Assembly: GCA_965223415.1 (NCBI GenBank)
Contig: OZ245002.1
Span: 2,208,001-2,272,000, forward strand
Direction: 5' to 3'
DNA: 64,000 nucleotides
DNA from: Myxococcota bacterium
GTDB taxonomy: Bacteria; Myxococcota_A; UBA9160; UBA6930
Both the position numbers and the translations under genes were made by a program. Under the pieces are notes generated by a model. The model had not been told where the DNA came from, did not search any database, and saw nothing but the letters and a program-made list of their open reading frames with translations. This document shows, in pieces, positions 33,061 to 62,105 of the stretch (the first letter of the stretch is position 1; each line of letters starts with the position of its first letter).

Positions 33061-33250
33061 TCCCTGCTCATCGGCACGCCCCTCGTCGGATGGAGCCGGC
33101 CGGCGCTCGCATTCGACGTTGCATGAGGTTCATTGGCCCCGGTGTGGGCCCTTGAGGGGGCGTCAGGCCGCTCCGGAGACACGATCGAGGCGAACGACGG
33201 GATTTCACCTCTCAGGTCAACCCTGGGTTCATCGATAAGGCGAACAACCC

Positions 33251-36052: not shown

Positions 36053-36088
36053 GCGTCTAGCCGGGCCGGCGTCCGGCCGAAGAGCCGG

Positions 36089-36844: not shown

Positions 36845-36874
36845 CGTAGCATGGGGCCTCACGAGGAGGTTCCC

Positions 36875-37240: not shown

Positions 37241-37246
37241 ACGCGC

Positions 37247-38698: not shown

Positions 38699-38799
38699 GA
38701 GGGCGATCGAGGCGGCACCGCTGGCGAGTGCCGGGCGACTTGCGGAACATCTGCGACCTTCTCTCGACGGGCCCTGGCGCCCGTGAAGGTCCATCCCAC

Positions 38800-41132: not shown

Positions 41133-41181
41133 CCACGCAGCACCGCGGCCTATACTCCCGCCCCCGCCAAGAGAGGAAGCC

Positions 41182-42258: not shown

Positions 42259-42262
42259 CGTC

Positions 42263-45200
42263 ATGAACGCCGCCGATTTCGCACTGCGCAACCGGACCGT
42301 CATCCTGGTGCTCACCGCCGTGATGTTCATCGGGGGTTTCCTCGCGTTCCAGAACCTCTCGCGCCTGGAAGACCCGGAGTTCACGATCAAGGACGCCCTG
42401 GTCGTCACGCCCTACCCGGGCGCCTCTGCCTACGAGGTGGAGGAGGAGGTGAGCGACGAGATCGAGCTGGCCGCCCAGCAGCTCGGCCAGCGGAAACGGG
42501 TGAAGTCGAGGAGCGACCGGGGCCTCTCCACGGTCACCGTCACCATCCAGGACAGCTACGCTAAGGACGAGCTGCCCCAGGTGTGGGACGAGCTTCGGCG
42601 CAAGGTCTCCGACGCCCAGTCGAAGCTGCCTCCCGGCACCGGGCCTTCCCTGGTGGTCGACGACTTCGGCGACGTCTACGGGGTCTTCGTCGCGGTCTAC
42701 GGTGCCGAGTACAGCTACGCCGAGCTCAAGAAGTTCGTCGACCTGCTCCGCCGGGAGCTGCTGCTGGTGCCCGAGGTCGCGAAGATCGAGCTGTGGGGCG
42801 AGCGCACCGAGGCGATCTACGTCGAGCCCTCCCGGGAGCGCATGGCCCAGCTCAACGTCTCGATCGAGGCGCTCACGAACGAGCTCCGCACCCGCAACCT
42901 CGTGGTCGACGCGGGGCGGGTGAAGGTCGGGCCCGAGTCCATCGCCATCCACCCGACCGGTCTCTTCGACTCGGTCGAGGATTTCGAGAACCTCCGCCTC
43001 CGCGGCGGCAGCGGCACGCAGATTCGCCTGCGCGATATCGCTTCCGTGCGCCGCGGCTACGTGGAGCCGCAGACCAAGGTGCTGCGCTACGACGGGAGCG
43101 TCGCGATCGGTCTCGGAATCTCCACCGTCTCCGGCGGCAACGTCGTGCGCATGGGCGAGCGGGTCGAGGCCCGCGCCCTCGAGCTGCGGAACCAGTGGCC
43201 CCTCGGCATCGAGGTGGGCCTCGTCTCGCTCCAGTCCGAAGCCGTCGTGAAGGCGATCCGGGGCTTCACGACGAGTCTGGTGCAGGCGGTCGCGATCGTG
43301 GTCGCCGTGCTGCTCGTCTTCATGGGGCTGCGCAGCGGCCTGCTGATCGGCTTCGTCCTCGTGCTCACGATCGCCGGGACGTTCATCTTCCTCGGCCCGA
43401 TGGGGGTGGCCCTCGAGCGCATCTCGCTGGGCGCGCTGATCATCGCCCTCGGCATGCTGGTCGACAACGCGATCGTGGTGGTCGACGGCATGCTCGTGCG
43501 CATGCAGGAGGGCCGGGCGCCCGAGGACGCCGCCCGGGAGGTGGTGGGGCAGACGGCGCTCCCGCTCCTCGGGGCGACGCTGGTGGCGATCCTCGCCTTC
43601 GCCGCGATCGGGACCTCCGACGACAGCACCGGCGAGTACTGCCGTTCCCTCTTCCAGGTCGTGCTGGTCTCGCTCGGGCTGAGCTGGGTCACGGCGGTCA
43701 CGGTCGCCCCCGTGCTCGGCGTGCTCTTCCTCGAGGTGCCGGCGGGCGATGCCGGGGCGCCCCACGGCGGCCGCTTCTACGCGGGCTACCGGGCGTTCCT
43801 CGCGGGGTGCATTCGCCGCCGCTGGGCGACGGTGGTGGCGGTGGCGATCGCCTTCGGCGTCTCGCTCTGGGGCTTCGGCTTCGTGGATCGGAGCTTCTTC
43901 CCGGATTCGACCCGGCCCCAGTTCATGGTGGACGTGCGGCTGCCCCAGCGTACCCACATCGACGACACCGCGCGGACCGCAGAGGAGGTGGAGCGGTACC
44001 TGCTGGGTCTCGACGAGGTCACCCACGTCACGTCGCTCGTGGGCGCGGGCGGCCTGCGCTTCCTCCTCACCTACGCCCCGGAGAAGACGAGCTCCGCCTA
44101 TGCGCAGTTCCTCGTGGACGTCGCCCCCGAGGACTACACCGCCATTCCGGCATTGATCGACCGCGCCGAGAGGGAGCTTGCGGCGGCGCACGCGGACGCC
44201 CTGATCAGCGGCAGGCAGTTCCTGCTCGGCCCGGGCGACGGCGGGAAGATCCAGCTCCGCATCAGCGGCCCGGATGCGAACGCGCTGCGTCGCCTCGAGA
44301 GCGAGGCGGCGGCGATCCTCGCGGCGGACCCGGATGCGAAGGGCATCCGCTCCGATTGGGGAGAGCGCGTCAAGGTGCTCCAGGCGCTGGTGGCCGACGA
44401 GGAGGCTGGGCGGGCCGGCATCACCCGCAGCGACGTCGCCGATGCGGTGCGGGCGGGCTTCGACGGCCTCCAGGTCGGCGTCTACCGCGAGGGCGACGAT
44501 CTCCTGCCGGTCCTGTTCCGCGCGCCGGCCGCCGAGCGCGGAGACGTCGGGAGCATCAACGACCGTCAGATCTGGAGCCCCGCGGCCGGACGATCGATCC
44601 CGCTCCGCCAGGTCGTCTCGGGCTTCGAGACCGTCTTCGAGGACGACGTCGTCCAACGCCGAAACCGCAAGCGCACGCTCACCCTCCACGCGGATCCGGT
44701 CCGAGGGCCCGCCAGCACCCTGCTCTCCCGGGTGCGCCCGAAGATCGAGGCCCTGGCGCTCCCGCCCGGCTACGCGCTCGAGTGGGGCGGCGAGGCCGAG
44801 AACTCCGGCGACGCCCAGGCGGCCCTCGCCGGCTCCATCCCCGCTTTCGTTCTGGTGATGTTCCTCGTCGTCGTCGCGCTCTTCAACGCCCTGCGCCAGC
44901 CGATCGTGATCTTCCTCAGCGTTCCCCTCGCGATCATCGGGGTGTCCGCCGGCCTGCTGGTGACGCGCCAGCCCTTCGGCTTCATGGCCCTGCTCGGCTT
45001 CCTCTCGCTCTCGGGCATGCTGATCAAGAACGCCATCGTGCTGATCGACGAGATCGAGGCGCAGAAGGGAAAGGGTGGGCCCCCGCTCCGGGCGATCCTC
45101 GATTCGGGCGTGAGCCGCCTGCGCCCCGTGGCGATGGCCGCCGTGACGACGGCGCTCGGCATGATCCCGCTCCTGCCGGACGCCTTCTTCGTGGCGATGG

Positions 45201-45298
45201 CCGTGACGATCATCGCCGGCCTGATGGTGGCCACGCTGCTGACGATGATCTTCGTCCCGGTGCTCTACGCGATCTTCTTCGGCGTCGAGGCCGACTGA
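42263..45298 (+). CDS. RND efflux permease (AcrB/AcrD/AcrF family)
   Basis: EDPEFTIK, LGMLVDNAIVV, GMLIKNAIVL, RLRPVAM; 1011 aa. Confidence 0.95.
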   Translation: MNAADFALRNRTVILVLTAVMFIGGFLAFQNLSRLEDPEFTIKDALVVTPYPGASAYEVEEEVSDEIELAAQQLGQRKRVKSRSDRGLSTVTVTIQDSYAKDELPQVWDELRRKVSDAQSKLPPGTGPSLVVDDFGDVYGVFVAVYGAEYSYAELKKFVDLLRRELLLVPEVAKIELWGERTEAIYVEPSRERMAQLNVSIEALTNELRTRNLVVDAGRVKVGPESIAIHPTGLFDSVEDFENLRLRGGSGTQIRLRDIASVRRGYVEPQTKVLRYDGSVAIGLGISTVSGGNVVRMGERVEARALELRNQWPLGIEVGLVSLQSEAVVKAIRGFTTSLVQAVAIVVAVLLVFMGLRSGLLIGFVLVLTIAGTFIFLGPMGVALERISLGALIIALGMLVDNAIVVVDGMLVRMQEGRAPEDAAREVVGQTALPLLGATLVAILAFAAIGTSDDSTGEYCRSLFQVVLVSLGLSWVTAVTVAPVLGVLFLEVPAGDAGAPHGGRFYAGYRAFLAGCIRRRWATVVAVAIAFGVSLWGFGFVDRSFFPDSTRPQFMVDVRLPQRTHIDDTARTAEEVERYLLGLDEVTHVTSLVGAGGLRFLLTYAPEKTSSAYAQFLVDVAPEDYTAIPALIDRAERELAAAHADALISGRQFLLGPGDGGKIQLRISGPDANALRRLESEAAAILAADPDAKGIRSDWGERVKVLQALVADEEAGRAGITRSDVADAVRAGFDGLQVGVYREGDDLLPVLFRAPAAERGDVGSINDRQIWSPAAGRSIPLRQVVSGFETVFEDDVVQRRNRKRTLTLHADPVRGPASTLLSRVRPKIEALALPPGYALEWGGEAENSGDAQAALAGSIPAFVLVMFLVVVALFNALRQPIVIFLSVPLAIIGVSAGLLVTRQPFGFMALLGFLSLSGMLIKNAIVLIDEIEAQKGKGGPPLRAILDSGVSRLRPVAMAAVTTALGMIPLLPDAFFVAMAVTIIAGLMVATLLTMIFVPVLYAIFFGVEAD

Positions 45299-46888: not shown

Positions 46889-47239
46889 TTATCGCCTCTC
46901 CAGCCACGCCGCCGCCCCGCCCGCCAGGGCCACGCCCAAGGCATCGGCCACGAAATCCGCCAGGGAGGGGTAGCGGTTCGGCACGAAGGCCTGGAGCACC
47001 TCGATCGCGCCGCCGTAGAGCACCAGCCCCGCCAGCGCCCAGAAGAAGGCGCGCCGATAGCCGAAGGCCAGGTAGGCGAGGGCGCCGAGCAGGAAGCAGG
47101 CGACGGCGTGCGCCACCAGGTCGTTCACCTGCACGCCATCCGGCATCGTGTGCGCGGGCAGCAGGCCCGCGGCCAGGCCCAGGGCCAGGGCCGCGAGCCA
47201 AAGCACCTGCCAGAGGATGGAGGCCCGCCGGGCGCTCAC
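46889..47239 (-). CDS. VanZ family protein
   Basis: ND..AH, YGGAIEVLQAFVPNR, ADFVADALG. Confidence 0.85.
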   Translation of the reverse strand: MSARRASILWQVLWLAALALGLAAGLLPAHTMPDGVQVNDLVAHAVACFLLGALAYLAFGYRRAFFWALAGLVLYGGAIEVLQAFVPNRYPSLADFVADALGVALAGGAAAWLERR

Positions 47240-47607
47240 TTCTTCTTCGGCCCCTTCTTCTTCCTGGCCTTCGCGCCCTTCTTCGGCTTCGCCCGCTCGG
47301 CCGCGGCGCGCGCCTCGACCACCCAGCCCGCCAGCTCCTCCGCGTCTTCCAGCACCTCCGCCGGCACCTGGAAGTAGGGCATCATCGCCTTGCCCCGGCC
47401 CTTCATCTGCTGCATGCCGCGCTCTTCGAAGGCGCCGCGGTTGCCGTCGTCCACCCGCAGGTAGAAGAGGCCGGCGCCGGTGAGGATCGCGCAGAACACC
47501 TCGTCCACGTAGACGCCCAGCCCGCCGAACATGCGCTTGGCGTGGACGTCGCCGGCCTCTTCGAGCTGGGAGAGGACGTAGGTCTGGAACTCGCTGGGTT
47601 CGGGCAT
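47236..47607 (-). CDS. TfoX/Sxy N-terminal domain protein
   Basis: KRMFGGLGVY, FYLRVD, MPYFQVP; Lys-rich tail. Confidence 0.88.
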   Translation of the reverse strand: MPEPSEFQTYVLSQLEEAGDVHAKRMFGGLGVYVDEVFCAILTGAGLFYLRVDDGNRGAFEERGMQQMKGRGKAMMPYFQVPAEVLEDAEELAGWVVEARAAAERAKPKKGAKARKKKGPKKK

Positions 47608-47761
47608 GTGGGGACCCTATCAAGACCGGCCTGTTCCCCGAGGGGGGATGGCTGCGGCCCGTTTCTTGATGAGGATTTGACGTTTTCCGACGCCCCCCCT
47701 CCATAGAATGATCGGGCTTCCAGCGGCCCGGCCCGCCGCCACACCATTCTGGAGGTTCGCC

Positions 47762-48592
47762 GTGGCCACCCGCTCCCTTTGCGCCCGAGTCGCCGTTCTC
47801 ACTGCGCTCGCGGCTTCCAGCGTGCCCGCCGCCGGCTCCGCTGCGGACGCCACCGCCCCGGCCCCGGGCGTCCTGCTCCAGGGGGCCTTCTCGGCCCGCT
47901 ACGACTGCACCCTCTCCGGCGTCGTCCGCATCGCCGCGCGCAAGGGCGATGCTCGCGCCCTCGAGCGCCGGGTGCACGTCGCCACCAAGCTGATCGACGA
48001 CCGCCTCCACACCTACGCCCAGTTCCGCGCCCCGGAGTACATCCGCGGCATGGCCTTCCTGGGCATCGAGCCGGAAGTGGTGGGCCGCAACGAGCAGCGC
48101 TTCGTCTACCTGCCGAGCATGCGTCGCATCCGCCGGGTGAGCGGCAGCCACTCGAGCGATTCGTTCCTCGGCACCGATCTCAGCTACCACGACTTCGAGC
48201 GGCAGCACGCTCGCAACTACGAGGTGGCACCTCCTGTCGCGGCCAACGCGGACGGCAGCGTCGTCCGCCTGCGCGCCAAGCCGCGCTTCCACACCGAGTA
48301 CGCCGCCGTCGAGTACGACGTGGACCGGCGCGACCACGCCATCCTCGGCACCCGCTACTACAAGCGGGACGGGGACGAGGCGTTCAAGGTGATGGAGATG
48401 CCCCGCGAGACGATCGTGGAGAGGGGCCACTGCCGCATCCCCAGCGTGGTGCGCGTGAGCGATCGCCAGCGGCGCACGACGACCGACCTTCGGATCGAAC
48501 CGCTCTCGATCGACGCGGAGTTCGACGACTCGCTGTTCTCGATGGTGTCACTGGAGAAGTCGAAGGACGTGCCGCTGCCGAGCACGCGTTGA
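47762..48592 (+). CDS. Outer-membrane lipoprotein-sorting (LolA-like) protein
   Basis: RBS GGAGG; signal peptide; F.APEYIRGMAFL, YLPSMRRIRRVSG, SFLGTDLSYHDF, DDSLFS...L. Confidence 0.85.
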   Translation: MATRSLCARVAVLTALAASSVPAAGSAADATAPAPGVLLQGAFSARYDCTLSGVVRIAARKGDARALERRVHVATKLIDDRLHTYAQFRAPEYIRGMAFLGIEPEVVGRNEQRFVYLPSMRRIRRVSGSHSSDSFLGTDLSYHDFERQHARNYEVAPPVAANADGSVVRLRAKPRFHTEYAAVEYDVDRRDHAILGTRYYKRDGDEAFKVMEMPRETIVERGHCRIPSVVRVSDRQRRTTTDLRIEPLSIDAEFDDSLFSMVSLEKSKDVPLPSTR

Positions 48593-48602
48593 CGCCGGCC
48601 CG

Positions 48603-50981
48603 ATGGAAGGACGTTCCACCTACATCCGACCCGACCGCCCGTCCCCGAGGAGAGCGTTCCTCCTCGGCGCGATCGCCATTGCGCCGCCGGTCGCGATTCT
48701 CCTCCTGGCCTTCCCATCCCTGCTCGATCCGGCGCAGCCGCGCTTCCCCTGCCCCCTCTATCCCAATGCGGTCACCTCGATGACCTCGGGGTTCCACGAG
48801 GGTTGTGAGCTTCCCTACGGGACGCGGATTCGCTCCGTCCGGGACGAGAAAGGCGTGGTCTTCGTCGACGACACCAACGGCCTCGGCGAAGTGCTCGAGA
48901 GGTTGAAGATCGGTCCCGTTTCGATCGACCTCGATCCTCGCGGCTCCGCCGAGGTCAGGACCCTCCCGCACGATTCGGCTCAGTCCATCGCCCGCGTCAC
49001 GGCTTCCGTCGTCCTCTGCGGGATCCTGATCGCCATCGTCCTGCTGACGGCCGTCCGCGCGAAGGTGGATGCGGCGTTGCCCTTCGCGCTCATCTACGGA
49101 AGCGTCGGAGCCCTGATCGCCGGGGCGATCGCGGGGTGGTCGGCTCCTGCGGTCTATCCCGTCACGGCGGCGGCGCGAATGCTCCTGGCGGCGGCGATCC
49201 TCGATCTGGCGATGGTCTTCCCTCGGCCCCGGGACATCCTCGACATCGCGCCTTCCGTGAGGAGCGTTCCGTACGCGTTCTTCGGCGTCATCCTCCTCGC
49301 CGAGCTCGACGCAACCTACCGCGCCGCCCACACCTCCATGGTGCTCGTGCAGAAGGTGTCCTTCGTCCTCCTCGCGGGGTCGATGCTCCTTCTGTGCGTC
49401 GCCTGCTACCTGGCCATGCGCGAGTCGCCCTCGCTGCTGGAGCGGCGACAGGCGACCGCATTCCTGAAGGGGCTCGTGGGTCTGTGCGCCGCCACGCAGC
49501 TGCTCTCGATCGCCGATCCCTCGAGCAGCGCCTTCTCCGCCACCGTCATCGGTGCGGCCCTCTCGCCCCTGCCCCTGGGCTATGCCATCGCCCGCTATCA
49601 TCTGTTCGATCTGGACCTGGCCGTGCGCCGGGCTGCGGCACATCTGGTCTACCTGCTCGCGATCAGCACCATCGTCTTCCTCGCCGTGGTGATCTTCCGC
49701 GAGGCGCTGACACTCCCCGACCTGGTCAGCTCGCGTCCGGTCCTCTTTGCCCTCGTCTTCGGCTGCATCGCCCCCTTGGATCTGCTTCGCTCATGGGTTG
49801 CCAGCTCGATCCAGACCGTGTTCCGCCCGAACTCGCTCGCCTGGGACCAGCTCCTCGACGATCCGTCCTCGACGCGCATTGCCGGGCTCTCGAGCGTGCA
49901 GGAGATTGCGTCCAGGGCGAGTCGGATCCTCGCGGCTGGTCTGCCGAAGACCCACAACGCGGTCTTCACCCTCGCAGAGCGCCGCATGGTTCTGGCTCAT
50001 GCGACGGGCCCCCCCGCGTGCACGGACTCGGGCATCGCCGAGCTCGCCGCCACGTCGTTTCCGGGTCGGCTCGTGGACCTGAACCGCGTCGAGCTGGACG
50101 AGGCCGGCGAGACCATCTACGAGGCCGGCGTCGAGCTGAGCTGCCCGATCGGCACGGGTGACGAGATCCTCGGATGGCTGATCGTCAGCCCCGCCCGACG
50201 AGGCATGTTCTTCTCCGCGGGCCACCTGAGCTTCGTGGAGTCGATCGCCGCCCAGGCTGCGTCGGCGCTGCACTCGATCGAGCTGAAGGAGGCGCTGGTC
50301 ATCTCCGAGCGGTTCGCGGCGAAGGGCCGCGTTCACGCCGAGCTTGCCCACGAGATCGGCAAACCCCTGGGCACGCTCGAGATCCTCGCCAAAAAGCTCG
50401 AGGCCGGCGCGGTCGACGCCGCGGCCCGTCCGCGAGTCGTCGAATCCATCGCGCGTCTCGCAGGTCAGCTGCGAAGCATCGTTCGCGGCGTTCTCGAGGC
50501 CGGCTCCATGCCCACGGAAGCTGCGCCCGTGCTCGTGCCGGACCTCATCGAGCAGGCGCTGCGCGAAGTTGCCGAGGTGCGCGGCGAGGGGCGAGTCGTG
50601 GTCCATGCCATTCCCCAGGTTCCGACGCTGCCTCTTCCCTTCCAGCGGCTCGGTCGGCTGATCGTCAACCTCCTGCACAACGCGATCGAGGCAAGCGATC
50701 CCGACGACACCGTCGAGCTGTCGGTCGACCACTTGGCCGGGACGCTCTCGATCGAGGTGAGTGACGATGGCCGCGGCATGTCCCCCGACCAGCTCGCGTG
50801 TGCGACGGAGCCCTTCGTGAGCTTTCGTCCGGAGGGCAACGGCCTCGGGCTCGCAATCGCCGCGGAGACCGTCCGCCAGCTCGGAGGCCGATTCGAGCTG
50901 TCGTCCGAGCTGGGAACGGGAACTCGAGCTCGGATCTCCATCTCCGCCGAAGCGATCCAGGGACAGGAGACGTCGCAATGA
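48603..50981 (+). CDS. Multi-TM sensor histidine kinase (periplasmic loop, TM block, GAF-like region, HisKA, HATPase)
   Basis: H-box LAHEIGKPL, NLLHNAIEA, DDGRGM, GNGLGL; YAIARYHLFDLD after the TM block. Confidence 0.9.
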   Translation: MEGRSTYIRPDRPSPRRAFLLGAIAIAPPVAILLLAFPSLLDPAQPRFPCPLYPNAVTSMTSGFHEGCELPYGTRIRSVRDEKGVVFVDDTNGLGEVLERLKIGPVSIDLDPRGSAEVRTLPHDSAQSIARVTASVVLCGILIAIVLLTAVRAKVDAALPFALIYGSVGALIAGAIAGWSAPAVYPVTAAARMLLAAAILDLAMVFPRPRDILDIAPSVRSVPYAFFGVILLAELDATYRAAHTSMVLVQKVSFVLLAGSMLLLCVACYLAMRESPSLLERRQATAFLKGLVGLCAATQLLSIADPSSSAFSATVIGAALSPLPLGYAIARYHLFDLDLAVRRAAAHLVYLLAISTIVFLAVVIFREALTLPDLVSSRPVLFALVFGCIAPLDLLRSWVASSIQTVFRPNSLAWDQLLDDPSSTRIAGLSSVQEIASRASRILAAGLPKTHNAVFTLAERRMVLAHATGPPACTDSGIAELAATSFPGRLVDLNRVELDEAGETIYEAGVELSCPIGTGDEILGWLIVSPARRGMFFSAGHLSFVESIAAQAASALHSIELKEALVISERFAAKGRVHAELAHEIGKPLGTLEILAKKLEAGAVDAAARPRVVESIARLAGQLRSIVRGVLEAGSMPTEAAPVLVPDLIEQALREVAEVRGEGRVVVHAIPQVPTLPLPFQRLGRLIVNLLHNAIEASDPDDTVELSVDHLAGTLSIEVSDDGRGMSPDQLACATEPFVSFRPEGNGLGLAIAAETVRQLGGRFELSSELGTGTRARISISAEAIQGQETSQ

Positions 50982-52177
50982 TCACCGTCCTGGTGGTCGA
51001 CGATTGCCCCGACGCGCTCGAGCTGATCTCGAGCGAACTCTGTTCAGAAGAGGTCGCGGTCCTCCGGGCCACGGACGGCCGAGAAGCCTGGCTCCTCTTC
51101 GAGGACGAGTCCCCGGACGTCGTCGTCAGCGACGTCCGCATGCCGCATTCCGACGGCTTCGATCTGCTGAAGCGGGTTCGGGAGGTCTCGGACGTGCCTC
51201 TCATCCTGCTGACGGCGCACGCCGAGGTGCCGGCCGCCGTCACTGCGATGCGCGCCGGCGCGGACGACTACCTCCGCTACCCGGACGACCTGGATCAGAT
51301 CCGGAGCGCGGTTCGCGAGCTGGCGAAACGCAAGGGGCCCACGCCGGGAGACGCGGTCGATCGGTTGCTCGTCGGAGACTCCGAGGTGATAGAAGTCGTG
51401 CGGAATCGCATCCGCTCGCTGGCCTCCCTGCGTTCCCCCGTTCTGATCACCGGCGAGTCCGGAAGCGGAAGGGCTCGCGTGGCGAAGGCGTTGCACGAGC
51501 TTTCGTCCCCCGAGAAGCCCCTGTGGGCCGTTGCCCCGAGCGAGCCCGCTCCGCCCGACGCCTTGGGGACCGTCCTCCTGAGGGAGATCGCCGATTTCGA
51601 GATGTCCGAGCAGAGGCGGTGGTGCACCGAGCTGCACCGGATCAAGGGCCGCAACTCTCCCTTCGATCGCCTGATCATCACGACCGAGGCGGAAAAGGGC
51701 GATCCTGCGGTCCATCCGCAGCTTTGGAAGGAGGCAGGTCGCTTCGAGATCGAAGTGCCCCCTCTTCGGAAGCGCGTCGAGGACATCGAGAAGCTCTCCT
51801 GGGACCTGGCCTGCGAGGTGAGCCGCGATCTCGGGTGCGACTCCCCACGCATCTCCCGCGACGCCGTCGCGACCCTGCAGAGACACAAGTGGCCCGGCAA
51901 CGTGTCCGAGCTGCGAGAGATCCTGGAGAAGGCCGTGGCCTACTCGCGTGGCAGCTTCGTCTCCGCTCACGCGATCGATGAAGCGCGAAGGCTGGTGATC
52001 ACGCAGAAGCAGGAGGGTCTCGCAAAGCGCCGCTCCGCCCGGCATCTCGCGGAACGCCAGGAGCTGGTCGTGATGCTCGAGGAGTGCGGTGGCAACGTGG
52101 CCGAGATGAGTCGCCGGATGGGCATGACGCGTGGTGCCATTGCCTACCGACTGAAGAAGCACGGGCTGGCGGTCTGA
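50978..52177 (+). CDS. NtrC-like response regulator with degenerate AAA+ domain (no GAFTGA)
   Basis: REC (VLVVDD, SDVRMP); GESGSGR; PPLRKRVEDI; WPGNVSELR; Fis-type HTH GGNVAEMSRRMG. Confidence 0.88.
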   Translation: MITVLVVDDCPDALELISSELCSEEVAVLRATDGREAWLLFEDESPDVVVSDVRMPHSDGFDLLKRVREVSDVPLILLTAHAEVPAAVTAMRAGADDYLRYPDDLDQIRSAVRELAKRKGPTPGDAVDRLLVGDSEVIEVVRNRIRSLASLRSPVLITGESGSGRARVAKALHELSSPEKPLWAVAPSEPAPPDALGTVLLREIADFEMSEQRRWCTELHRIKGRNSPFDRLIITTEAEKGDPAVHPQLWKEAGRFEIEVPPLRKRVEDIEKLSWDLACEVSRDLGCDSPRISRDAVATLQRHKWPGNVSELREILEKAVAYSRGSFVSAHAIDEARRLVITQKQEGLAKRRSARHLAERQELVVMLEECGGNVAEMSRRMGMTRGAIAYRLKKHGLAV

Positions 52178-54447
52178 TGCACCGACTTACGGAGCTTTCG
52201 CTTCGGTATCCGTGGGTGACGATCGTTGTCGCGCTTGTCGCTTCGGGTCTGGCTGGTGCCTCCCTTCCCGGCCAGGACGTTCTTACTGGCGCCCGCTCGC
52301 AGCTCGGTGCCGCAAGTTCGGTAGTGCAGACGTTCGACTCCTTCATGGAGCGCTTCGGCGGCGGCTACCCCGTTCTGATCGCATGGAGCTGCGAGACATC
52401 TCCCTGCGAAGATGTGCTCGACGCCAAGTCTCGGTCAATGGCCTCCGACGTGTCCCGCTTCCTCGAGCAGGCGGAGTTCGTTACGCGAGTCCTGAGTCCT
52501 GCCACGACACCGCTGGTCGCATCGGACGAGATGGGGAACATCGAGATCATCCGCCTCGGCGACGGGGTGCAGAACGAGCTGATCTCCGACCGCGAGCGCG
52601 ATCTCGTGTACCAGGATCCAAGTTGGCGGCGGGCTCTCGTGTCTGAAACCGCAGATGTGGCTGGGATCGTAGTCGAGACCAGCTCAAGCGATAGCGACGC
52701 GCTCTTCTCGATTGTGAGCGATGTTCGGCTGGCGCTCGAGCCTCATCGCCTCGCCGGGTTCGACTTCCATCTCATGGGCCAGCCTGTCCTCGAAGTGATG
52801 ATCCAAGAGCAGTCGCTGAAGGATGGAGCCACTGTGGCTGCGCTCACCAGCCTGGTGATTGCCCTCACGATCGCGTACCTGACAAGATCCTGGCAAGCGG
52901 TGGTCGCCGTGATGCTCACCATCGGATGCGCCACGGCGTGGATGATGAGCTCCCTGACCATCCTTGGGTGGCCACGAGACTCGCTGGCAATGGTCGCACC
53001 CACGCTGGTCTTGGTGGTAGGCGCCGCGGATGCGATTCACCTCTTGTCGTCCTATGCGGCCAATCGGTCCCTAGGCCGATCCACTCGAGATTCCCTTGTC
53101 GGTGGCGCTCGGCAGCTCTCGGGGCCCTGCCTGGTGACGACGCTTACGACTGGAGCAGCGTTCGCCTCTTTCGTGGCAAGTGAGATCCGAGCTCTTGCCC
53201 AGTTCGGCGTTCTCAGCGCCATTGGAGTATCGGCAGCCCTGATCTTGGCCTTTTCTCTTCTGCCAGCCCTGATGTACGTGCTGCCTTCGGAGGGACGGTC
53301 GGCTGGCCGACGTTCTGACGGCTGGAGTCGCGTCGTGGGGCGACTTGCGGACTTCGCGACGACCCGGGTTGGCCTCGTTTTCGGGGCCGCAGCCCTGGTC
53401 CTGGCCGTTTCGGCTGTAGGAGTGCCAAAGCTGCGCGCGGAATTCGACATCTATGGCTTTTGGGAGTCGTCCCATCCGGTTAGGCAGGCGCTCGCCTTTT
53501 TCGACGAGAACCTCCGGCGCCCGGATTCATTCGAAGTGTCGATCAGTCCCCCCATGCCGACCACGTTTGCGGACCCGGATGCACTTCGACTGCTCGAAGG
53601 AGTCGAAGCGGATCTTGCAGAGATCAAAGGGCTTGGGTCCTCGATGTCGATTGTGAAGATCTTGAAGCGGCTCGACGAAGTTGTCGGGGAAGGCTCGCCC
53701 GGACTGAGCCCGACTCGGGTCGCAGAGCTCCTACTTCTGAGTTCCTTCGGAGGACCGCACGTGATCGACCCGTGGATCACAATCGACCACCAGCACGCGA
53801 GGATCTCGCTGGAAGCTGGACGCCTTCTTCAGCAAGAGCGAGCGGAGATGATCGCTTCCGCCAGTCGAGTCCTTGAGAACCGCTTGCCGGAGGGCTGGAG
53901 GTTCGAGGTTACCGGTTCGATTCCGTTGATGCATGCCAGCGTGGACTCCACCATGAGAGCTCAGCTGCAGTCGTTCGTCGTCGCGACTGGGCTGGTCTTC
54001 GTGATCTTGGTGATCTACATGCGATCGTTGTTCTGGGGGGCGTTCGCGATGCTCCCAAATCTGATTCCGGTCGCGGTCCTCATCGGCGCAATGGGGCACC
54101 TCGGGATCTACCTGGACGCCGCGACGGCGATGGTGGCTCCCCTGGCGCTCGGCATCGCAGTCGATGACACGATTCACATCCTGGCAGGCTTTCGTGCCAA
54201 TCGAGCGCGTGGCATCGATATGGTGAACGCAGTTCGTTCAGCGATGATGACCACTGGGCGGGCAGTGATCACGACAACTGCGGCGCTTGGTCTGGGGTTC
54301 TTGACAATGATGGTGTCGTCCTTTCAGAACATTGCGAACATCGGATTCTTGAACTCGCTCGCCATAGTCGGCGCACTCGTGGCCGATCTCATCGTGCTTC
54401 CCGCGCTCATCGCGGCGCTTGCGTCGATGCGGAGTCGAGCACGGTAG
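52177..54447 (+). CDS. MMPL/RND family lipid transporter
   Basis: Two repeats of TM-periplasmic domain-TM block; GAADAIH, TTLTTGAAF, LGIAVDDTIH, TGRAVITT, ADLIVLPAL. Confidence 0.9.
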   Translation: MHRLTELSLRYPWVTIVVALVASGLAGASLPGQDVLTGARSQLGAASSVVQTFDSFMERFGGGYPVLIAWSCETSPCEDVLDAKSRSMASDVSRFLEQAEFVTRVLSPATTPLVASDEMGNIEIIRLGDGVQNELISDRERDLVYQDPSWRRALVSETADVAGIVVETSSSDSDALFSIVSDVRLALEPHRLAGFDFHLMGQPVLEVMIQEQSLKDGATVAALTSLVIALTIAYLTRSWQAVVAVMLTIGCATAWMMSSLTILGWPRDSLAMVAPTLVLVVGAADAIHLLSSYAANRSLGRSTRDSLVGGARQLSGPCLVTTLTTGAAFASFVASEIRALAQFGVLSAIGVSAALILAFSLLPALMYVLPSEGRSAGRRSDGWSRVVGRLADFATTRVGLVFGAAALVLAVSAVGVPKLRAEFDIYGFWESSHPVRQALAFFDENLRRPDSFEVSISPPMPTTFADPDALRLLEGVEADLAEIKGLGSSMSIVKILKRLDEVVGEGSPGLSPTRVAELLLLSSFGGPHVIDPWITIDHQHARISLEAGRLLQQERAEMIASASRVLENRLPEGWRFEVTGSIPLMHASVDSTMRAQLQSFVVATGLVFVILVIYMRSLFWGAFAMLPNLIPVAVLIGAMGHLGIYLDAATAMVAPLALGIAVDDTIHILAGFRANRARGIDMVNAVRSAMMTTGRAVITTTAALGLGFLTMMVSSFQNIANIGFLNSLAIVGALVADLIVLPALIAALASMRSRAR

Positions 54448-54744
54448 TCCTCGGATCGAAGACGATCAGATGTCAACGGCTGCAGATGGCCCGGTGTTTC
54501 GCGGCCCCGCGCGTATCGACCCCGATTCTCGGTGAGCTGAGCCTGGCGGCTCTGGACCGCTGCCTTCGGACGGAACCCGCCTCGCCCGCACCGTGTCGAT
54601 CGTGGCACTCGCCCCAGGTGGCCTCCGGTGCCGCTGGTCGCCGCCCTGACGGCCCTCGCCGCGCCCCCCGATTTGGCGATCTTTGACACCATCCGCCGCT
54701 CTCCAGCCTGTCGTTCCCACCCTCCGCGCCCGTAGGGTCGTGGC

Positions 54745-54957
54745 ATGGCTCGGCTCTCCCTGTTCTGCACCCGCCATCCGAAGCTCGCCTGCCTGGCGCT
54801 CCCGGGCTGGGTTGCCCTGAGGGAGTCCCAGGCGCTTCGGCTGGACGACGCCGTGGACCTGCCGATCCTTCCGGCCCTCGTCTCGATCGTGGCCGCGGAC
54901 CGGGAGCGGGCGGGGTCGGATGTCGGCCTCGCCGCCGAGCCCGTAAGGACGCGCTGA
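54745..54957 (+). pseudogene. Probable internally deleted MMPL paralog (N-terminus fused to C-terminus), 70 aa
   Basis: MARLSLFCTRHP resembles MHRLTELSLRYP and VDLPILPALVSIVA resembles ADLIVLPALIAALA of the adjacent MMPL. Confidence 0.5.
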
Positions 54958-54971
54958 GAAGGAGAACCATC

Positions 54972-55880
54972 ATGGCTCAGACGATTCGCCACGGCACCGA
55001 GCCGACCGCAGCCATCTCCGACGCGCATGCACCCCGCGTCGAGGTGGAATCGCTGGGCGCTCTTGCCGGCGAAGGCCGCGCAGTCACCCGGGTAAGGGAG
55101 TGGCTGCGCGGTCTGGCGTCCCTGCAGGCGCCGGTCCTCCTGGTCGGTGAGGCCGGGAGCGGTCGCAGCACGGCCGCGGGTCTGCTGCACGCCTGGGGAA
55201 CCGCGGCCCAGGCTCCATTCGTCCGCATCGCCGCGGGTGGCGTGGGCCCCGAGGCCACTCCGCTTCGCGGGACGATCCATCTCGAGGATCTCGAGCAGCT
55301 TCCGGCCGCCGGGCAGGGGCGGTGGCGACGGTTCGTGGATGCGTCCCACGAAGGCAGTCGGCTCATCGCGTCGGCCGGTCCTCTCTTCGCCGACCGTGTT
55401 GCCAGCGGCGGCTTCGACGCAGCGCTAGCATCCGCGTTGCAGCGGTTCGAGGTGCGGTTGCCCACCCTGCGCGATCGGCCCGAAGACCTGCCTGTCCTCG
55501 CGTCGGCCTTGCTCGCTTCGGTCGGTCGTGAGCTCGGGCGCCCGGATCGCCGTCTGACGGACGGCGCGGTGCGACGCCTCGCCCGTGAGCGCTGGCCCGG
55601 CAACCTCACCGAGCTGCGTCGCGTGATCGAGCGGCTGATCGCCTTCTGCGACGGGCCGTCCATCGGCCTAACAGAGGTGGAGGCGGTGCTCGAGGACATT
55701 CGTCCGTCGGTGGCCGAGCTCCGCGAGCGCCATCAGGTGGCCGAGCGAGTGTGCCTGATTCGGCACCTCGAAGAGACCGGCGGCAACGTCACCGAGACGG
55801 CGGAGCGCATGCAGCGGAGCCGCGCTGCCATCTACCGGCTGGTCGAGAAGCACGGCATCGCGCTGCGGCGGGGCGCCTGA
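54972..55880 (+). CDS. Receiver-less degenerate sigma54-activator-like regulator (AAA+-like domain and Fis HTH)
   Basis: RBS AAGGAG; GEAGSGR, PTLRDRPEDL, WPGNLTELR, GGNVTETAERM; no GAFTGA. Confidence 0.85.
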   Translation: MAQTIRHGTEPTAAISDAHAPRVEVESLGALAGEGRAVTRVREWLRGLASLQAPVLLVGEAGSGRSTAAGLLHAWGTAAQAPFVRIAAGGVGPEATPLRGTIHLEDLEQLPAAGQGRWRRFVDASHEGSRLIASAGPLFADRVASGGFDAALASALQRFEVRLPTLRDRPEDLPVLASALLASVGRELGRPDRRLTDGAVRRLARERWPGNLTELRRVIERLIAFCDGPSIGLTEVEAVLEDIRPSVAELRERHQVAERVCLIRHLEETGGNVTETAERMQRSRAAIYRLVEKHGIALRRGA

Positions 55881-55983
55881 GCCGACCCGGAGGAAACCCC
55901 AACGCTGCGCTCGGGATCCCCCAATCCCCCGCTACTGACCGCGCGGCTAGCTTCCTCGTGCCCTTCTCGCCCGAGGAAGATCC

Positions 55984-57699
55984 GTGCCGACGCCCGACGG
56001 GTTCACGCTCGATCCGGCGGCGTTTCGCGCGTCGCATCCGTTCCACGCGGTCGTTTCCCGCCGAGGCGAGATCACCCAGGTGGGACGGGGCTGGCAGCGA
56101 TTGGCTCCGGAGCTGCGTGCGGGTGCCCGCTTCGACGAGAGCTTCGCGTTCGTGCAGCCGCCGCAGGGGCGCTTCGAGGCGGCGGCGCTCGACGAGCTGG
56201 AGGGCTCGCTTCTCGTCCTGGAGCACCGTCGGCTGGGGCTGCGCCTGCGCGCGGAGGTGGTGGCTTCAGGCGGTGTGTTCTTCTTCCTGATGACGCCGTG
56301 GGCCCGCGGGCTCGATGCGCTTCGCCAGGCGGGCCTGCGACTCGAGGACTTCGCGGCCCACGATGCGATCGGTGACTACCTGGTAGCGCTCGATGCGCAG
56401 AACGCGCTGCTCGGCGAGGCCCGGGAGCTGGCCGAGCGCCTGGCCGCCCAGAAGGCCGAGCTGGCCCGCCTGAACGAGCGCCTCGCTGCGGAGATGGAGG
56501 CCGTGCAGCAGGCGCGGGACGAGCGCGCGCAGATGGCGCGGCGAGTGAAGGAGGCCGAGCGGCTCGAAAGCCTGGGTGTGCTGGCGGGCGGCGCCGCCCA
56601 CGATTTCAACAACCTGCTCGTGCCGATCCTCGCCAACGCGGAGCTGCTCCGGGACGAGCCGGTCGGGGAGCAGGGGCGGCGCTGTGTCGAGGAGATCCTG
56701 CAGGCCTCCAGCATCGCCGCGGATCTCTGCCGGCAGATGCTCTCCTACGCCGGGCGCACGCCGGTGCACCTGGAGCTGGTCTCCCTCTCCGGCGTGGTCG
56801 AGGAGATGCAGGAGCTCGTCGGCAGCGCGGCCCCGGGCGTCGAGCTCGGCTTCGAGCTCGATCCAAGGCCGGTCGAGCTGCGTGCCGATTCCACCCAGGT
56901 GCGGCAGATCGTGCTGAACCTCGTGCTCAATGCCACCGAGGCCTGCGGTGCGGTGGGCGGGCGCGTCACGGTGCGCACGGGCCAGCACCTGCCCGGGCCG
57001 CCTCGCCCGGACGAGGTGCGCATGGGGGAGCTGAGCGAGGAGCGCTCCTACGCCTACCTCGAGGTGGAGGACGACGGCGAGGGCATGGACGCCGCCACCC
57101 TCGAGCGCATCTTCGATCCCTTCTTCTCCACCAAGCTCCTCGGGCGCGGCCTCGGCATGGCGGTAGTGTTCGGCATCGTGCGTCGTCACGAGGGCGCCGT
57201 CATCGTCCGCAGCGCTCCGGGCCGGGGCACGCGCATCCGGGTGCTCTTTCCGCCGGGCAATGGAGAGTCTTCCGCGGTGCTTGCGCCTGCGCCGGAGACG
57301 CCGGCTCCCGCTCTTTCCGGCCGGATCCTCCTCGTGGACGACGACCACCGGGTTCGCACCGTCGCCGAGCGCATCCTTCGGCACCACGGCTTCGACGTGG
57401 TCTCGGCCTCCGACGGCGAAGAAGCGCTCGCCCGCTGTCGCGAGACGAGCCACGATCTGCGCTGCGTCCTGCTCGATCTCTCGATGCCCGGGCTCGGCGG
57501 CGAGGCCGTCTACCGGGAGCTGCGCGCGAAGTGGCCGGGCCTGCCCGTGCTGCTGATGAGCGGCTACACCGGCGAGACGGTCGCGGAGCTGCTGGGCGGC
57601 GACCCGCGCGCCGGCTTCCTCCACAAGCCCTTCGGCGCCGAGCAGGTCCTGGCGGCCATCGGCCGCGTGAGCGCGCCGCCGGGCGACGAGGCGGGCTGA
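55984..57699 (+). CDS. Hybrid histidine kinase with N-terminal HNOBA (H-NOX-associated) domain and C-terminal receiver
   Basis: HPFH...ITQVG...FFLMTPW...GLRLEDFAAHD; AHDFNNLL; NLVLNA; DDGEGM; GRGLG; LLVDDD, LDLSMP. Confidence 0.9.
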   Translation: MPTPDGFTLDPAAFRASHPFHAVVSRRGEITQVGRGWQRLAPELRAGARFDESFAFVQPPQGRFEAAALDELEGSLLVLEHRRLGLRLRAEVVASGGVFFFLMTPWARGLDALRQAGLRLEDFAAHDAIGDYLVALDAQNALLGEARELAERLAAQKAELARLNERLAAEMEAVQQARDERAQMARRVKEAERLESLGVLAGGAAHDFNNLLVPILANAELLRDEPVGEQGRRCVEEILQASSIAADLCRQMLSYAGRTPVHLELVSLSGVVEEMQELVGSAAPGVELGFELDPRPVELRADSTQVRQIVLNLVLNATEACGAVGGRVTVRTGQHLPGPPRPDEVRMGELSEERSYAYLEVEDDGEGMDAATLERIFDPFFSTKLLGRGLGMAVVFGIVRRHEGAVIVRSAPGRGTRIRVLFPPGNGESSAVLAPAPETPAPALSGRILLVDDDHRVRTVAERILRHHGFDVVSASDGEEALARCRETSHDLRCVLLDLSMPGLGGEAVYRELRAKWPGLPVLLMSGYTGETVAELLGGDPRAGFLHKPFGAEQVLAAIGRVSAPPGDEAG

Positions 57700-57700
57700 G

Positions 57701-58249
57701 ATGTACGGCATCGTCAACCGCGGCGTCGAGCAGATGCTCGTCGCTCGGTTCGGTGAGGAGCTGTGGCGCCAGGTGGTCGACGAGGTCGATCCGCAGTGGG
57801 TCGGCTTCGTCAGCATGGAGAGCTACCCGGACGAGCTGACCTACCGCCTCATCGAGGCGGCGAGCCGGAGGACGGGCACCGGCAGGGCCGAGCTGCTGGA
57901 GGCCTGGGGCGAGCAGTGGTTCCTGCCCGTTTTCGAAGAGGGCTTCGGACACCTGATCGACATGACCGGCGAGAGCCTGGGCGAGGTCCTGTCCCGGCTC
58001 GACGCCCTCTACGCCCGCGTGGCCCTCCTCTTCCCCCAGATGCGCGCGCCCGGCTTCGTGTGCAAGACCCTCGGCCCCGGTCTCTGGGAGCTCCTCTACC
58101 GGAGCGAGCGCGAGGGCCTGGCGCCGCTGGCCAAGGGTTCGCTGCGCGGGCTCGCGGCGCGGCTCGGCACGCGGGTGGAGGTGGAGCAGGTCGCGGCGCG
58201 GCCGGAGGCGGAGCACGACGTGTTCCGGGTGCGGGAGGTCGGCAGCTAG
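57701..58249 (+). CDS. H-NOX (heme NO-binding) domain protein, proximal His replaced by Tyr
   Basis: MYGIVN, FGEELW, YPDELT, LDALYARV, FPQMRAPGF, and YRSER (YxSxR motif). Confidence 0.9.
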   Translation: MYGIVNRGVEQMLVARFGEELWRQVVDEVDPQWVGFVSMESYPDELTYRLIEAASRRTGTGRAELLEAWGEQWFLPVFEEGFGHLIDMTGESLGEVLSRLDALYARVALLFPQMRAPGFVCKTLGPGLWELLYRSEREGLAPLAKGSLRGLAARLGTRVEVEQVAARPEAEHDVFRVREVGS

Positions 58250-58274
58250 CTCGGCCGAGCCCCGCGGGGAGGGC

Positions 58275-58303
58275 TTGACCACAAAACTAGAACATGTTTC
58301 AAT
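58275..58303 (+). promoter_or_regulatory. sigma70-like promoter overlapped by a KstR-type operator
   Basis: TTGACC-17 bp-TTCAAT with TGn before the -10; TAGAACATGTTTCA at 58288-58301 equals TnnAACnnGTTnnA. Confidence 0.65.
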
Positions 58304-58362
58304 TCCGCCTCGCGGCCCCGCCCCCTCCGCGGGCAGGCGGCCCCCAGCCGAGGCCCGCCCCC

Positions 58363-59544
58363 ATGCACATCGACTTCACCCCCGAGCAGAAGGCGCTGCG
58401 CCAGGAGCTGCGCGCCTACTACCAGGACCTGCTCCAGGGAGACCTCCGCCGCCGCCTCGACGAGGAGTGGGACGAGCTCGGCGGGCCCGCCTTCCGCGAG
58501 GCCATGGGCCGGATGGGCAAGGACGGCTGGCTCGTGATCGGCTGGCCCAAGGAATGGGGCGGGCAGGGCCGCGGGCACATCGAGCAGTTCATCTTCTGGG
58601 ACGAGACCTATCGTGCCCGCGCGCCGCTTCCGCTCATCACCGTCAACACGGTCGGGCCGATGGTGATGCAGCACGGGACGAAGCAGCAGCAGGAAGAGCT
58701 GCTGCCGAAGATCCGCGACGGCGAGCTGATGGTCTCGATCGGCTACACGGAGCCGAACAGCGGGACGGATCTCGCGTCGCTGCAGACCCGCGCCGTGCGC
58801 GACGGCGACGAATGGGTGATCAACGGGCAGAAGGTCTACACGACCCACGCCGGCGATGCGGACTACGTGTGGCTCGCCTGCCGCACGGATCCCGACGCGC
58901 CGAAGCACAAGGGCATCTCGATCATCCTCGTGCCCACCTCCGATCCGGGCTATACGGCGACGCCCATCGAGACGATCGGCGGCGAGATCACCTACGCCAC
59001 CTTCTACGAGGACATCCGCGTTCCGGTCGCGAACACGATCGGGCCCGAGAACGGCGGCTGGGGGCTGATCACCGGGCAGCTCAACCTGGAGCGCATCACC
59101 CTGGCCATGCCGGCGAGCCTCGATCGGCTGTACGACGAGATCGCGGCCTGGGCCGAGCAGACCGAGCGCCCCGGCGGCGGCCACATGATCGACGAGCCCT
59201 GGGTGCAGCAGAACCTCGCCAAGGTGTATGCCGAGCTCGAGGCGCTCAAGGTGATGAACTGGCGCTCGGCCTGGATGATCGATCAGGGCGCGCCGGGCAT
59301 GGCCGAGAGCTCGGCGGTGAAGGTGTTCGGCACCGAGATGGTGATCGAGTGCTACCGCCTGCTCCTCGAGATCACGGGCCAGGCCGGCCTCGTGCGCAAG
59401 TGGGAGACCGGTGCGCTCTTCGGGGGGCTCCTGGAGAGCGCCTACCGCCTGTCGATGGTGAACACCTTCGGCGGCGGCGTGAACGAGGTGCAGAGGGACA
59501 TCATCGCGGCGGCGGGGCTGCAGCTCCCGCGGGCGCGGCGCTAG
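58363..59544 (+). CDS. Acyl-CoA dehydrogenase, FadE29/ChsE2-like (steroid side chain)
   Basis: IDFTPEQ, GYTEPNSGTDLASL, KHKGIS, QLNLERI, TFGGGVNEVQRDII. Confidence 0.88.
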   Translation: MHIDFTPEQKALRQELRAYYQDLLQGDLRRRLDEEWDELGGPAFREAMGRMGKDGWLVIGWPKEWGGQGRGHIEQFIFWDETYRARAPLPLITVNTVGPMVMQHGTKQQQEELLPKIRDGELMVSIGYTEPNSGTDLASLQTRAVRDGDEWVINGQKVYTTHAGDADYVWLACRTDPDAPKHKGISIILVPTSDPGYTATPIETIGGEITYATFYEDIRVPVANTIGPENGGWGLITGQLNLERITLAMPASLDRLYDEIAAWAEQTERPGGGHMIDEPWVQQNLAKVYAELEALKVMNWRSAWMIDQGAPGMAESSAVKVFGTEMVIECYRLLLEITGQAGLVRKWETGALFGGLLESAYRLSMVNTFGGGVNEVQRDIIAAAGLQLPRARR

Positions 59545-59559
59545 AGGGTAGGAGACGCG

Positions 59560-60540: not shown

Positions 60541-60544
60541 CGAG

Positions 60545-61663: not shown

Positions 61664-61673
61664 GAGGAAGGGA

Positions 61674-62093
61674 ATGGAGACCCGCAGCTTCGAGTCCGTG
61701 CACGCCGGTGACGAGCTCCCGCCGCTGGACGTCCCGGTCTCCGCGGCCATCATCGTCGGTGGCGCCGTTGCCTCGAACGACTTCACGCCGGTGCACCACG
61801 ACCGCTCGGCGGCGGTCGAGCAGGGTCTGCCGGACGTGTTCATGAACATCCTCACCACCAATGGCTACGTCGGCCGCTACGTCACAGACTGGGCCGGCCC
61901 CGACGCCCTGGTGAAGGGCGTGCGGCTCAAGCTGGGTGGCCCCAACATGCCTGGCGACACACTCAAGATCCGCGGCAAGGTGCTGGAGACGACCGACGAC
62001 GGCGTGGCCGTGGTCGAGGTGGCCGGCAACAACTCCTGGGGCAACCACGTGACGGCGACGGTGAAGGTCGCGCTGCCCCGAGCAGCGGCCTAG
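61674..62093 (+). CDS. ChsH1-like MaoC dehydratase
   Basis: GDELPP, A.ASNDFTPVHHD, FMNILTTNG, VTDWAGP, LGGPNMPGD. Confidence 0.88.
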   Translation: METRSFESVHAGDELPPLDVPVSAAIIVGGAVASNDFTPVHHDRSAAVEQGLPDVFMNILTTNGYVGRYVTDWAGPDALVKGVRLKLGGPNMPGDTLKIRGKVLETTDDGVAVVEVAGNNSWGNHVTATVKVALPRAAA

Positions 62094-62105
62094 GAGGCGA
62101 GAGGG

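Follow-up and report, generated by a model that had tools for sequence, protein, structure and literature searches.

A co-conserved MMPL pump, LolA-like carrier and two-component gene module in a Myxococcota genome, with pump-kinase fusions in relatives that suggest transporter-coupled sensing

The window analysed here is a 64,000-nucleotide stretch of the genome of a Myxococcota bacterium (GenBank assembly GCA_965223415.1, contig OZ245002.1, positions 2,208,001 to 2,272,000 of the forward strand), which was assembled as one contig of 5.83 Mb; the G+C content is about 70% across the window. A block of five genes between 47.7 and 55.9 kb, all on the + strand and with reading frames backed by periodicity of the third-position G+C (GC3), encodes a LolA-like carrier, a sensor histidine kinase, the response regulator RR, a transporter of the MMPL type and RR2, a second regulator. 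The features of this block are as follows.

47762..48592, + strand, LolA-like periplasmic carrier (276 aa from GTG 47762; longest open reading frame, ORF, from ATG 47708)
48603..50981, + strand, sensor histidine kinase (792 aa; HATPase_c, weak GAF_2)
50978..52177, + strand, response regulator RR (Response_reg, Sigma54_activ_2, AAA_lid_14, HTH_8)
52177..54447, + strand, MMPL/HAE3-like RND transporter (756 aa; PF03176)
54745..54957, + strand, possible remnant of a second MMPL gene, weak (70-codon ORF)
54972..55880, + strand, RR2, receiver-less paralog of RR (302 aa; Sigma54_activ_2, AAA_lid_14 and HTH, without REC)

A sequence-only reading of this DNA had named these gene products as a LolA-like protein, a multi-helix kinase with a GAF-like domain, a regulator, an MMPL and a receiver-less regulator paralog, all of which were borne out by ORF and domain matches. 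The tight + strand spacing that it reported was also recovered by direct reading of all three junctions, namely the stop codon TGA at 48590-92 followed by a 10-nt gap and ATG 48603 between the LolA-like and kinase genes, an ATGA overlap at 50978-81 between the kinase and RR genes, and a TGATG overlap at 52175-79 between the RR and MMPL genes.

The carrier matched the LolA_like profile PF17131 with 94.2 bits (cut-off 30) over residues 102-284 and nearly the whole profile (positions 5-184 of 184). The most likely start of its gene is GTG 47762, which has a GGAGG Shine-Dalgarno sequence 6 nt upstream and is followed by a Sec signal peptide with no lipobox. Sequence matches in the PDB included 9tp6_A (E 1.8e-8), 3bk5 and 4z48, with the description 'outer membrane lipoprotein-sorting protein', and 23 orthologs of the carrier could be aligned.

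The transporter matched PF03176 in two stretches (110.5 bits, cut-off 20.5) and consists of two halves of six transmembrane (TM) helices resembling the sterol-sensing domain (SSD). It carries a DAxH motif (DAIH) in TM4 and GIAVDDTIH in TM10, charged motifs that we take to be the proton relay. The best-scoring RND subfamily was HAE3 (TIGR00921; 176.8 bits), yet this score is under the cut-off of 351.9, and weak Pfam matches to Patched and Sterol-sensing were found both in this protein and in the fused proteins described below. Identification with HpnN (TIGR03480, 117.5 against 751.85 bits; NF052374, 63.2 against 1100 bits) or with BstA (NF045600, 28.6 against 1400 bits) was rejected. The GC3 of the gene is 0.62-0.81, compared with 0.83-0.94 for its neighbours, and its position differs from that in a congener (G002); the gene may have been rearranged or replaced recently.

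The short ORF at 54745-54957 is weakly similar to both ends of an MMPL protein. Its first 19 residues resemble the N-terminus (47% to the MMPL of locus L030, blastp E 0.033) and residues 38-56 resemble the C-terminus (53% to residues 738-756 of the window MMPL, blastp E 0.013); a profile comparison over six frames gave E 0.12, and no score for this ORF was significant. These similarities are suggestive of a second MMPL gene that kept its terminal tips and lost its interior. Such a reading is plausible because tandem MMPL genes occur in relatives (L025 and L050) and because one related locus (L045, genome G337) carries a clear internally deleted MMPL remnant at 5662-6114 on the - strand, directly upstream of an intact MMPL gene, in which the N-terminal ~95 aa (q2-95, E 1.4e-17) are joined to the C-terminal ~60 aa (q692-750, E 1.2e-9). 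A search for repeats in the promoter region and in the gap at 54440-54990 revealed nothing convincing.

AlphaFold models of the kinase (pLDDT, the model confidence score, 89.6 at full length with 59 sequences and 83.3 for residues 1-430) contain about nine TM helices and show TM1 at residues 15-41, a periplasmic PDZ-like domain at 42-124, a seven-helix membrane bundle from 125 to about 365, a GAF domain at about 430-535, a DHp domain with His583, and a CA domain. HATPase_c was matched with 74.6 bits and GAF_2 with 22.8 bits, the latter under its cut-off of 28.6, and the Pfam HisKA model gave no match at E <= 0.01 in this protein. The H-box His and the N, G1 and G2 boxes are present, with H583, N693, D721, G723, G725, G747 and G749 invariant in 59 kinase sequences, and by these residues the kinase looks catalytically competent. 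Its sole extracytoplasmic part is the PDZ-like domain, an alpha/beta fold of 80 residues in which Cys50 and Cys68 are kept in at least 90% of alignment rows, and which superposes on the PDZ domain of 1y8t_A (Rv0983) with Z 9.4 and a root-mean-square deviation of 2.3 A over 75 residues. Pfam PDZ was unmatched, and the nearest Atlas clusters, which derive from a language model, are PDZ-labelled on 10-83% of their members, a lead only. HisKA_7TM (PF16927) was likewise unmatched at E <= 0.01, one Atlas cluster being so labelled on 12% of its members (again only a lead), and the membrane bundle superposes on bundles like those of G-protein-coupled receptors with Z 10-11, under the bar of about 13 for helical folds. 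Foldseek returned kinase cores alone for the full model and nothing at E <= 0.001 for the N-terminal model.

Paralogous kinases of 850-940 aa with the same layout of TM helices, GAF and kinase core are found elsewhere in this genome at 2478157-2482871 (L034) and 1182432-1184420 (L035). They are 24-27% identical to the window kinase, two of them lie in tandem, and none has an adjoining MMPL gene; at L035, PF17131 is matched at a distance of about 5 kb from the kinase copy.

RR is composed of a REC domain, a truncated AAA+ domain (Sigma54_activ_2), an AAA lid and a Fis-type HTH_8 domain. The receiver (PF00072, 87.5 bits) has the DD pair, the acceptor Asp ('VVSDVRMP') and the Thr ('LLTAH'), and, in both the window and the congener G002, a Tyr or Phe at the 'DYLRYP' position, where we presume the conserved Lys of receivers would be expected. 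About 27 alignment columns of the AAA+ domain, including the ESELFGHERGAFTGA loop (GAFTGA), are missing in RR, RR2 and all 11 module-type orthologs, and in the same alignment the loop columns are present in four canonical enhancer-binding proteins that adjoin the module in some relatives. The alignment of RR with the solved structure of NtrC1 (4l4u) breaks between RR residues 183 and 247, matching the site of the lost columns. Walker A reads GESGSGR in RR and GEAGSGR in RR2; where its Lys is expected, 11 of 13 module-type sequences have R and the other two have H or C. Walker B of RR reads LLREI, with an Arg within the motif. Assignment of RR and RR2 to the sigma-54-activating bacterial enhancer-binding proteins was rejected, as GAFTGA is absent and neither Walker A (GxxGxGK) nor Walker B (hhhhDE) has the expected form. 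Because both the GAFTGA loop and the Walker A lysine are lost, the regulator family is thus predicted to be sigma-54-independent and almost certainly ATPase-dead; the description of RR as a degenerate NtrC-like regulator in the sequence-only reading agrees with these losses.

The closest paralog of RR2 in the genome is RR (32%), and an ortholog of RR2 with 58% identity occupies the same position in the congener G002. Split regulators recur in relatives, where a lone receiver was found in seven loci and its receiver-less AAA-HTH partner was seen in four of these seven. Because the G002 ortholog is in place and receiver-less or split forms recur, RR2 is, judged by its conservation, a recurring component and not a relic. 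The earlier proposal of a relic second unit at the end of the block therefore fails for RR2, and for the MMPL remnant it is merely suggestive (E 0.013-0.12, not significant).

Canonical sigma-54 activators with GETGTGK and GAFTGA adjoin the module in relatives at L027 5636-6964, L029 5662-6990, L030 7031-8029 and L032 6135-7109; they lie twice beside a HAD hydrolase and have a degenerate receiver-like N-terminus in L027 and L029. The window block has no equivalent of them.

The conservation of the block was examined in 37 loci fetched by kinase homology, to which the window proteins were mapped by tblastn; 36 loci gave hits. All locus counts refer to features no more than about 9 kb away from the kinase, and in many loci the neighbourhood is truncated by a contig end. 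An MMPL gene was found near the kinase in 27 of the 36 loci, a LolA-like gene in 25, and a regulator of the RR type in 29, whereas all three were present together in 18. The LolA-like gene lies directly before or after the kinase gene in most loci. Gene order was permuted, being LolA-HK-RR-MMPL (HK, histidine kinase) in the window, LolA-HK-MMPL-RR in the congener G002, HK-MMPL-LolA-RR in genus g2 and RR-MMPL-HK-LolA in most others; the insertion of a two-component system between carrier and exporter, to which the sequence-only reading had given weight, is just one of several arrangements. Within its own order, the kinase has full-length homologs in several families and genera, and the sensor region was detected at E <= 1e-30 in 28 of 401 sampled genomes of the phylum, which belong to that order (two to the same class only). 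Of the 106 ORFs called outside the modules, the 51 closest to them, from 14 loci, were scanned, and no conserved flanking enzyme, whether biosynthetic or not, and no outer-membrane partner was found among these. The families in these flanks were varied (glutamine synthetase, ABC ATPase, MAPEG, epoxide hydrolase, inositol-1-phosphate synthase, HAD hydrolases, acyl-CoA ligase and others), in keeping with the earlier remark that the block holds no biosynthetic enzyme. The block thus forms a genuine module that stands by itself and is conserved together in relatives; a lack of co-conservation, which the sequence-only reading had named as a result that would refute it, was not observed.

A further feature of the relatives is the fusion of the pump to the kinase. 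In 10 of the 36 kinase-centred loci, MMPL and kinase share one uninterrupted frame of about 1550 codons. The fusions in L027, L029 and L030 have one terminal stop and uniformly high GC3, and in them a short Arg-rich linker after TM12 of the pump is followed by the whole kinase, including its TM1 and periplasmic domain. A profile covering the sensor region together with GAF (residues 1-560 of the kinase) matched 219 proteins at E <= 1e-30 in a search of 1.84 billion representative sequences. Among the best 150 of these 219 matches, 20 have lengths of 1346-1573 aa and a kinase part that begins near residue 730-816; an N-terminal MMPL domain was found in all 20 and a C-terminal HATPase_c domain in 18, and in three more fragments the kinase is preceded by part of an MMPL. 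A quick maximum-likelihood tree of 30 kinases requires six changes in the fused state, at least two of which are forced by well-supported branches; the unfused L028 is sister to the fused L030 with 98% support.

The charged motifs of the pump have been kept throughout, with DAxH in TM4 and GIAVDDxxH in TM10 in all 13 locus MMPLs and the TM10-form motif in all 20 fused proteins (its second D changed to N or G in three). Because these motifs are retained in both fused and separate forms, the fused pump looks like a working transporter. The repeated fusion of MMPL and kinase, which the sequence-only reading had no means of seeing, is the stronger mechanistic clue, and it suggests that the cell reads the state of the pump itself as a signal.

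We put at about one in two the probability that the block is a transporter-coupled two-component module whose kinase reads the state of the pump or carrier. A proton-driven RND pump of the MMPL/HAE3 type would take a hydrophobic substrate, most likely a lipid of the membrane or envelope or a hydrophobic toxicant, out of the inner membrane and hand it to the soluble periplasmic LolA-like carrier. For the unfused version in the window, we infer that the kinase, with its PDZ-like domain, seven-helix bundle and GAF domain, would be complexed with the pump in the membrane and possibly touch the carrier through the PDZ-like domain. Occupancy of the pump, the carrier or both would then lead to autophosphorylation of the kinase on His583 and phosphotransfer to the receiver of RR. 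Because its NtrC-derived AAA+ domain can apparently neither hydrolyse ATP nor touch sigma-54, RR would bind DNA with its Fis-type HTH as an oligomer controlled by phosphorylation, with RR2 probably serving as its receiver-less partner. The most likely target of these regulators would be the module itself, which would result in need-based control.

Several observations weigh against this reading. In the window itself, kinase and MMPL are separate proteins, and the kinase has potential ligand-binding domains of its own (the modelled PDZ-like domain, seven-helix bundle and GAF) with which it could sense alone. No MMPL gene adjoins the kinase in 9 of the 36 loci, and therefore the pump is not obligatory in cis; among these nine, L024, L026, L031, L048 and L049 retain the LolA-like gene, L043, L056 and L057 have regulators alone, and L038 is a contig of 2.7 kb. 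The counts are kinase-centred and come from related genomes, and thus are not independent. A scan of 47200-58400 detected no sigma-70-like promoter and no terminator. On the side of the reading, a complex prediction for the carrier with the PDZ-like domain reached a median score of 0.33, compared with 0.00 for the best control, with at least 69% contact agreement between runs and a partner pLDDT of at least 72, which is weak support: the mark was reached by 116 of 157 solved complexes and 2 of 215 mismatches, and scores that passed it but did not exceed 0.60 were given by 18 of the 157 solved complexes as well as by both passing mismatches, so that by this calibration so weak a pass is usually wrong unless the pairing was likely beforehand.

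A bolder form of the transporter-coupled reading is doubtful but possible. According to it, RND/SSD pumps would provide bacterial histidine kinases with their ligand-sensing input; in this Myxococcota lineage the pump, fused to or bound by the kinase, and the LolA-like carrier, docked on the PDZ-like domain, would together report envelope-lipid load to the kinase, and an ATPase-dead, sigma-54-independent NtrC relic would carry the signal to transcription as a hetero-oligomer of RR and RR2. If true, the module would be a prokaryotic counterpart of SSD signalling of the Patched/SCAP type and the first RND-based 'trigger transporter'.

Some of the genes around the block bear on its possible function. 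The surroundings contain the following features.

33239-45298, autotransporter (beta-domain), DUF4345, alpha-L-fucosidase, and an HlyD-type adaptor with an AcrB-type RND pump (a separate tripartite efflux system)
55984-57699, + strand, HNOBA-HisKA-HATPase-REC hybrid kinase, directly after RR2
57701-58249, + strand, H-NOX (haem-NO-binding) protein, after the hybrid kinase
58294-63275, two acyl-CoA dehydrogenases, a ChsH2-like hydratase (FAS1_DH_region, zf-ChsH2 and OB_ChsH2_C) and a Thiolase_C_1 protein

Upstream of the block lie the AcrB/HlyD pair, a K+ channel and TfoX, and these surroundings are unrelated to the module. The H-NOX pair next to RR2 is conserved within the genus only (synteny in G002, loci L021/L064). 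The layout of the cluster at 58294-63275 resembles that of genes for steroid or branched side-chain beta-oxidation, and it is syntenic and 65-86% identical in G002. A single gene of the squalene-hopene/oxidosqualene cyclase family lies at genome positions 4881885-4882850, in a 638-codon frame unlinked to the module, and on this basis the organism may make cyclic triterpenoids.

It is rather unlikely that the block is an ordinary efflux operon under stimulus control, in which the kinase itself binds a cue from outside or from the membrane through its PDZ-like domain, seven-helix bundle or GAF, RR induces pump and carrier, and the fusions only secure stoichiometry or co-localisation and pass no signal. 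RND pumps regulated by two-component systems are common, the kinase offers three candidate input domains, loci with kinase and regulator and without MMPL or LolA-like genes exist (L043, L056 and L057), and the TM-GAF kinase architecture is pump-free elsewhere in the genome (L034 and L035). Uncoupled sensing, however, hardly explains the repeated and persistent fusion of a full 12-TM pump to the N-terminus of the kinase, and known transporter-fused or transporter-bound kinases are reported to take the transporter as input. The same fusions, which place sensing at the pump and not at a diffusible product, also argue against an autocrine circuit, the proposal nearest to the sequence-only reading, in which a self-made lipophilic signal or a sterol- or hopanoid-like lipid would be exported and then sensed outside as in quorum sensing. 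Exporter, carrier and sensor do lie within one cassette, the pump is weakly similar to the lipid transporters HpnN and BstA, and a single gene of the squalene-cyclase family is present at 4.88 Mb; but the HpnN and BstA scores are far under the cut-offs, the cyclase gene is 2.6 Mb distant from the module, and no synthase is conserved beside the module among the 51 flanking ORFs of 14 loci, so that such a circuit appears improbable.

It is also a long shot that the block serves uptake, with the MMPL and LolA-like proteins handling a hydrophobic nutrient that enters the cell (a long-chain alkane or a steroid-like lipid, for instance) and the two-component system switching on genes of the beta-oxidation type, for example the cluster of acyl-CoA dehydrogenase, ChsH2-like and thiolase genes 2.4 kb downstream. 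RND pumps are established as exporters, which counts against this idea, and although that cluster is syntenic with the module in G002, the adjacency is restricted to the genus, no acyl-CoA dehydrogenase or thiolase was found among the flanks scanned in other relatives, and the H-NOX pair lies between module and cluster. In its favour, a fusion of MMPL and LolA-like domains in Thalassolituus is reported to be up 42-fold on n-C28 (PMC6304351).

PrsK/PrsR of XrtA/PEP-CTERM systems resembles the module in combining a multi-TM kinase bearing a GAF domain with an NtrC-family regulator. The sequence-only reading had named orthology to this pair as a result that would speak against it, and neither protein reaches the family cut-off: the kinase scored 94.3 bits against 300 for PrsK (TIGR02916), with a match limited to the kinase core (profile positions 410-678), and none of 52 matches genome-wide exceeded that cut-off, whereas RR and RR2 scored 121.3 and 93.9 bits against 502.6 for PrsR (TIGR02915), which its NCBIfam description presents as a genuine sigma-54 activator. 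For RR as well as RR2, the best NCBIfam match was NtrX, which also ranked third among the PDB sequence matches (5m7n) and has the same REC-AAA+-HTH_8 layout. Like them, NtrX is not known to carry GAFTGA; the score, however, is 150.9 bits against a cut-off of 600, and the RR type has also lost the Walker A Lys and has an AAA+ core about 40 residues shorter. CrbR and CbrB, from the systems compared below, are true sigma-54 activators, unlike RR. HpnN and BstA share the RND/SSD-type fold and motifs and deliver lipids towards the outer membrane, whereas the window pump is far under their family cut-offs and has no hopanoid or sterol genes in cis. The RND/SSD membrane domain serves as the input of signalling pathways in eukaryotic Patched, SCAP and NPC1, to which the pump has weak Pfam matches; their output is non-homologous, and the likeness is an analogy only.

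The two-gene core of MMPL and LolA-like protein is known from other bacteria, and four adjacent pairs of this kind were found in the present genome. Operons of Porphyromonas (PG1175-81) and Prevotella are induced 13- to 223-fold by iron limitation (PMC10434189), and TOL_3187 of Thalassolituus is the alkane-induced MMPL fused to a LolA-like domain mentioned above (PMC6304351). Control in these cases is of the TetR type or unassigned, and none of the pairs is reported with a dedicated or fused histidine kinase. The module could reveal the cargo of these widespread, uncharacterised cassettes, and it could also show how AAA+ regulators work after losing ATPase activity and sigma-54 contact.

A likeness of function only exists to the Bce modules (BceRS-BceAB of Bacillus subtilis), in which a transporter-kinase complex senses flux; the kinase, which has little input from outside the cytoplasm, is described as joined physically to the transporter, signalling its activity and bringing about need-based induction (PMC4513084, PMC10314905, PMC9169098). 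The Bce modules have an ABC transporter, an OmpR-type regulator and a non-covalent complex and belong to Firmicutes, whereas the window and its relatives have a pump of the RND/MMPL type that in many cases is covalently fused, together with a PDZ-7TM-GAF kinase and an NtrC-derived regulator; membership in the Bce type was rejected, as the transporter is RND and not ABC, and flux sensing, described for Bce, would be a conjecture for the present module. The fusions also resemble CbrA/CrbS-type kinases, in which, as reported, a whole transporter, an SLC5 symporter domain, is fused N-terminally to the histidine kinase and an NtrC-family regulator is the partner (PMC5715377); the transporter superfamily is different, and these systems have no periplasmic carrier. 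No description of an RND/MMPL-kinase fusion or of this cassette was found in the full-text literature, subscription journals not being covered, and to that extent the earlier statement that this is not a described system holds. Transporter-coupled sensing is established for ABC (Bce) and SLC5 (CbrA/CrbS) transporters, and in the same literature no report of it was found for pumps of the RND/MMPL class, the dominant ones in the lipid export and drug efflux of diderm bacteria. The natural series of fused and unfused MMPL-kinase proteins with a dedicated carrier, in which the fused forms are ready targets for cryo-electron microscopy, offers a tractable system for how cells read the state of an RND pump.

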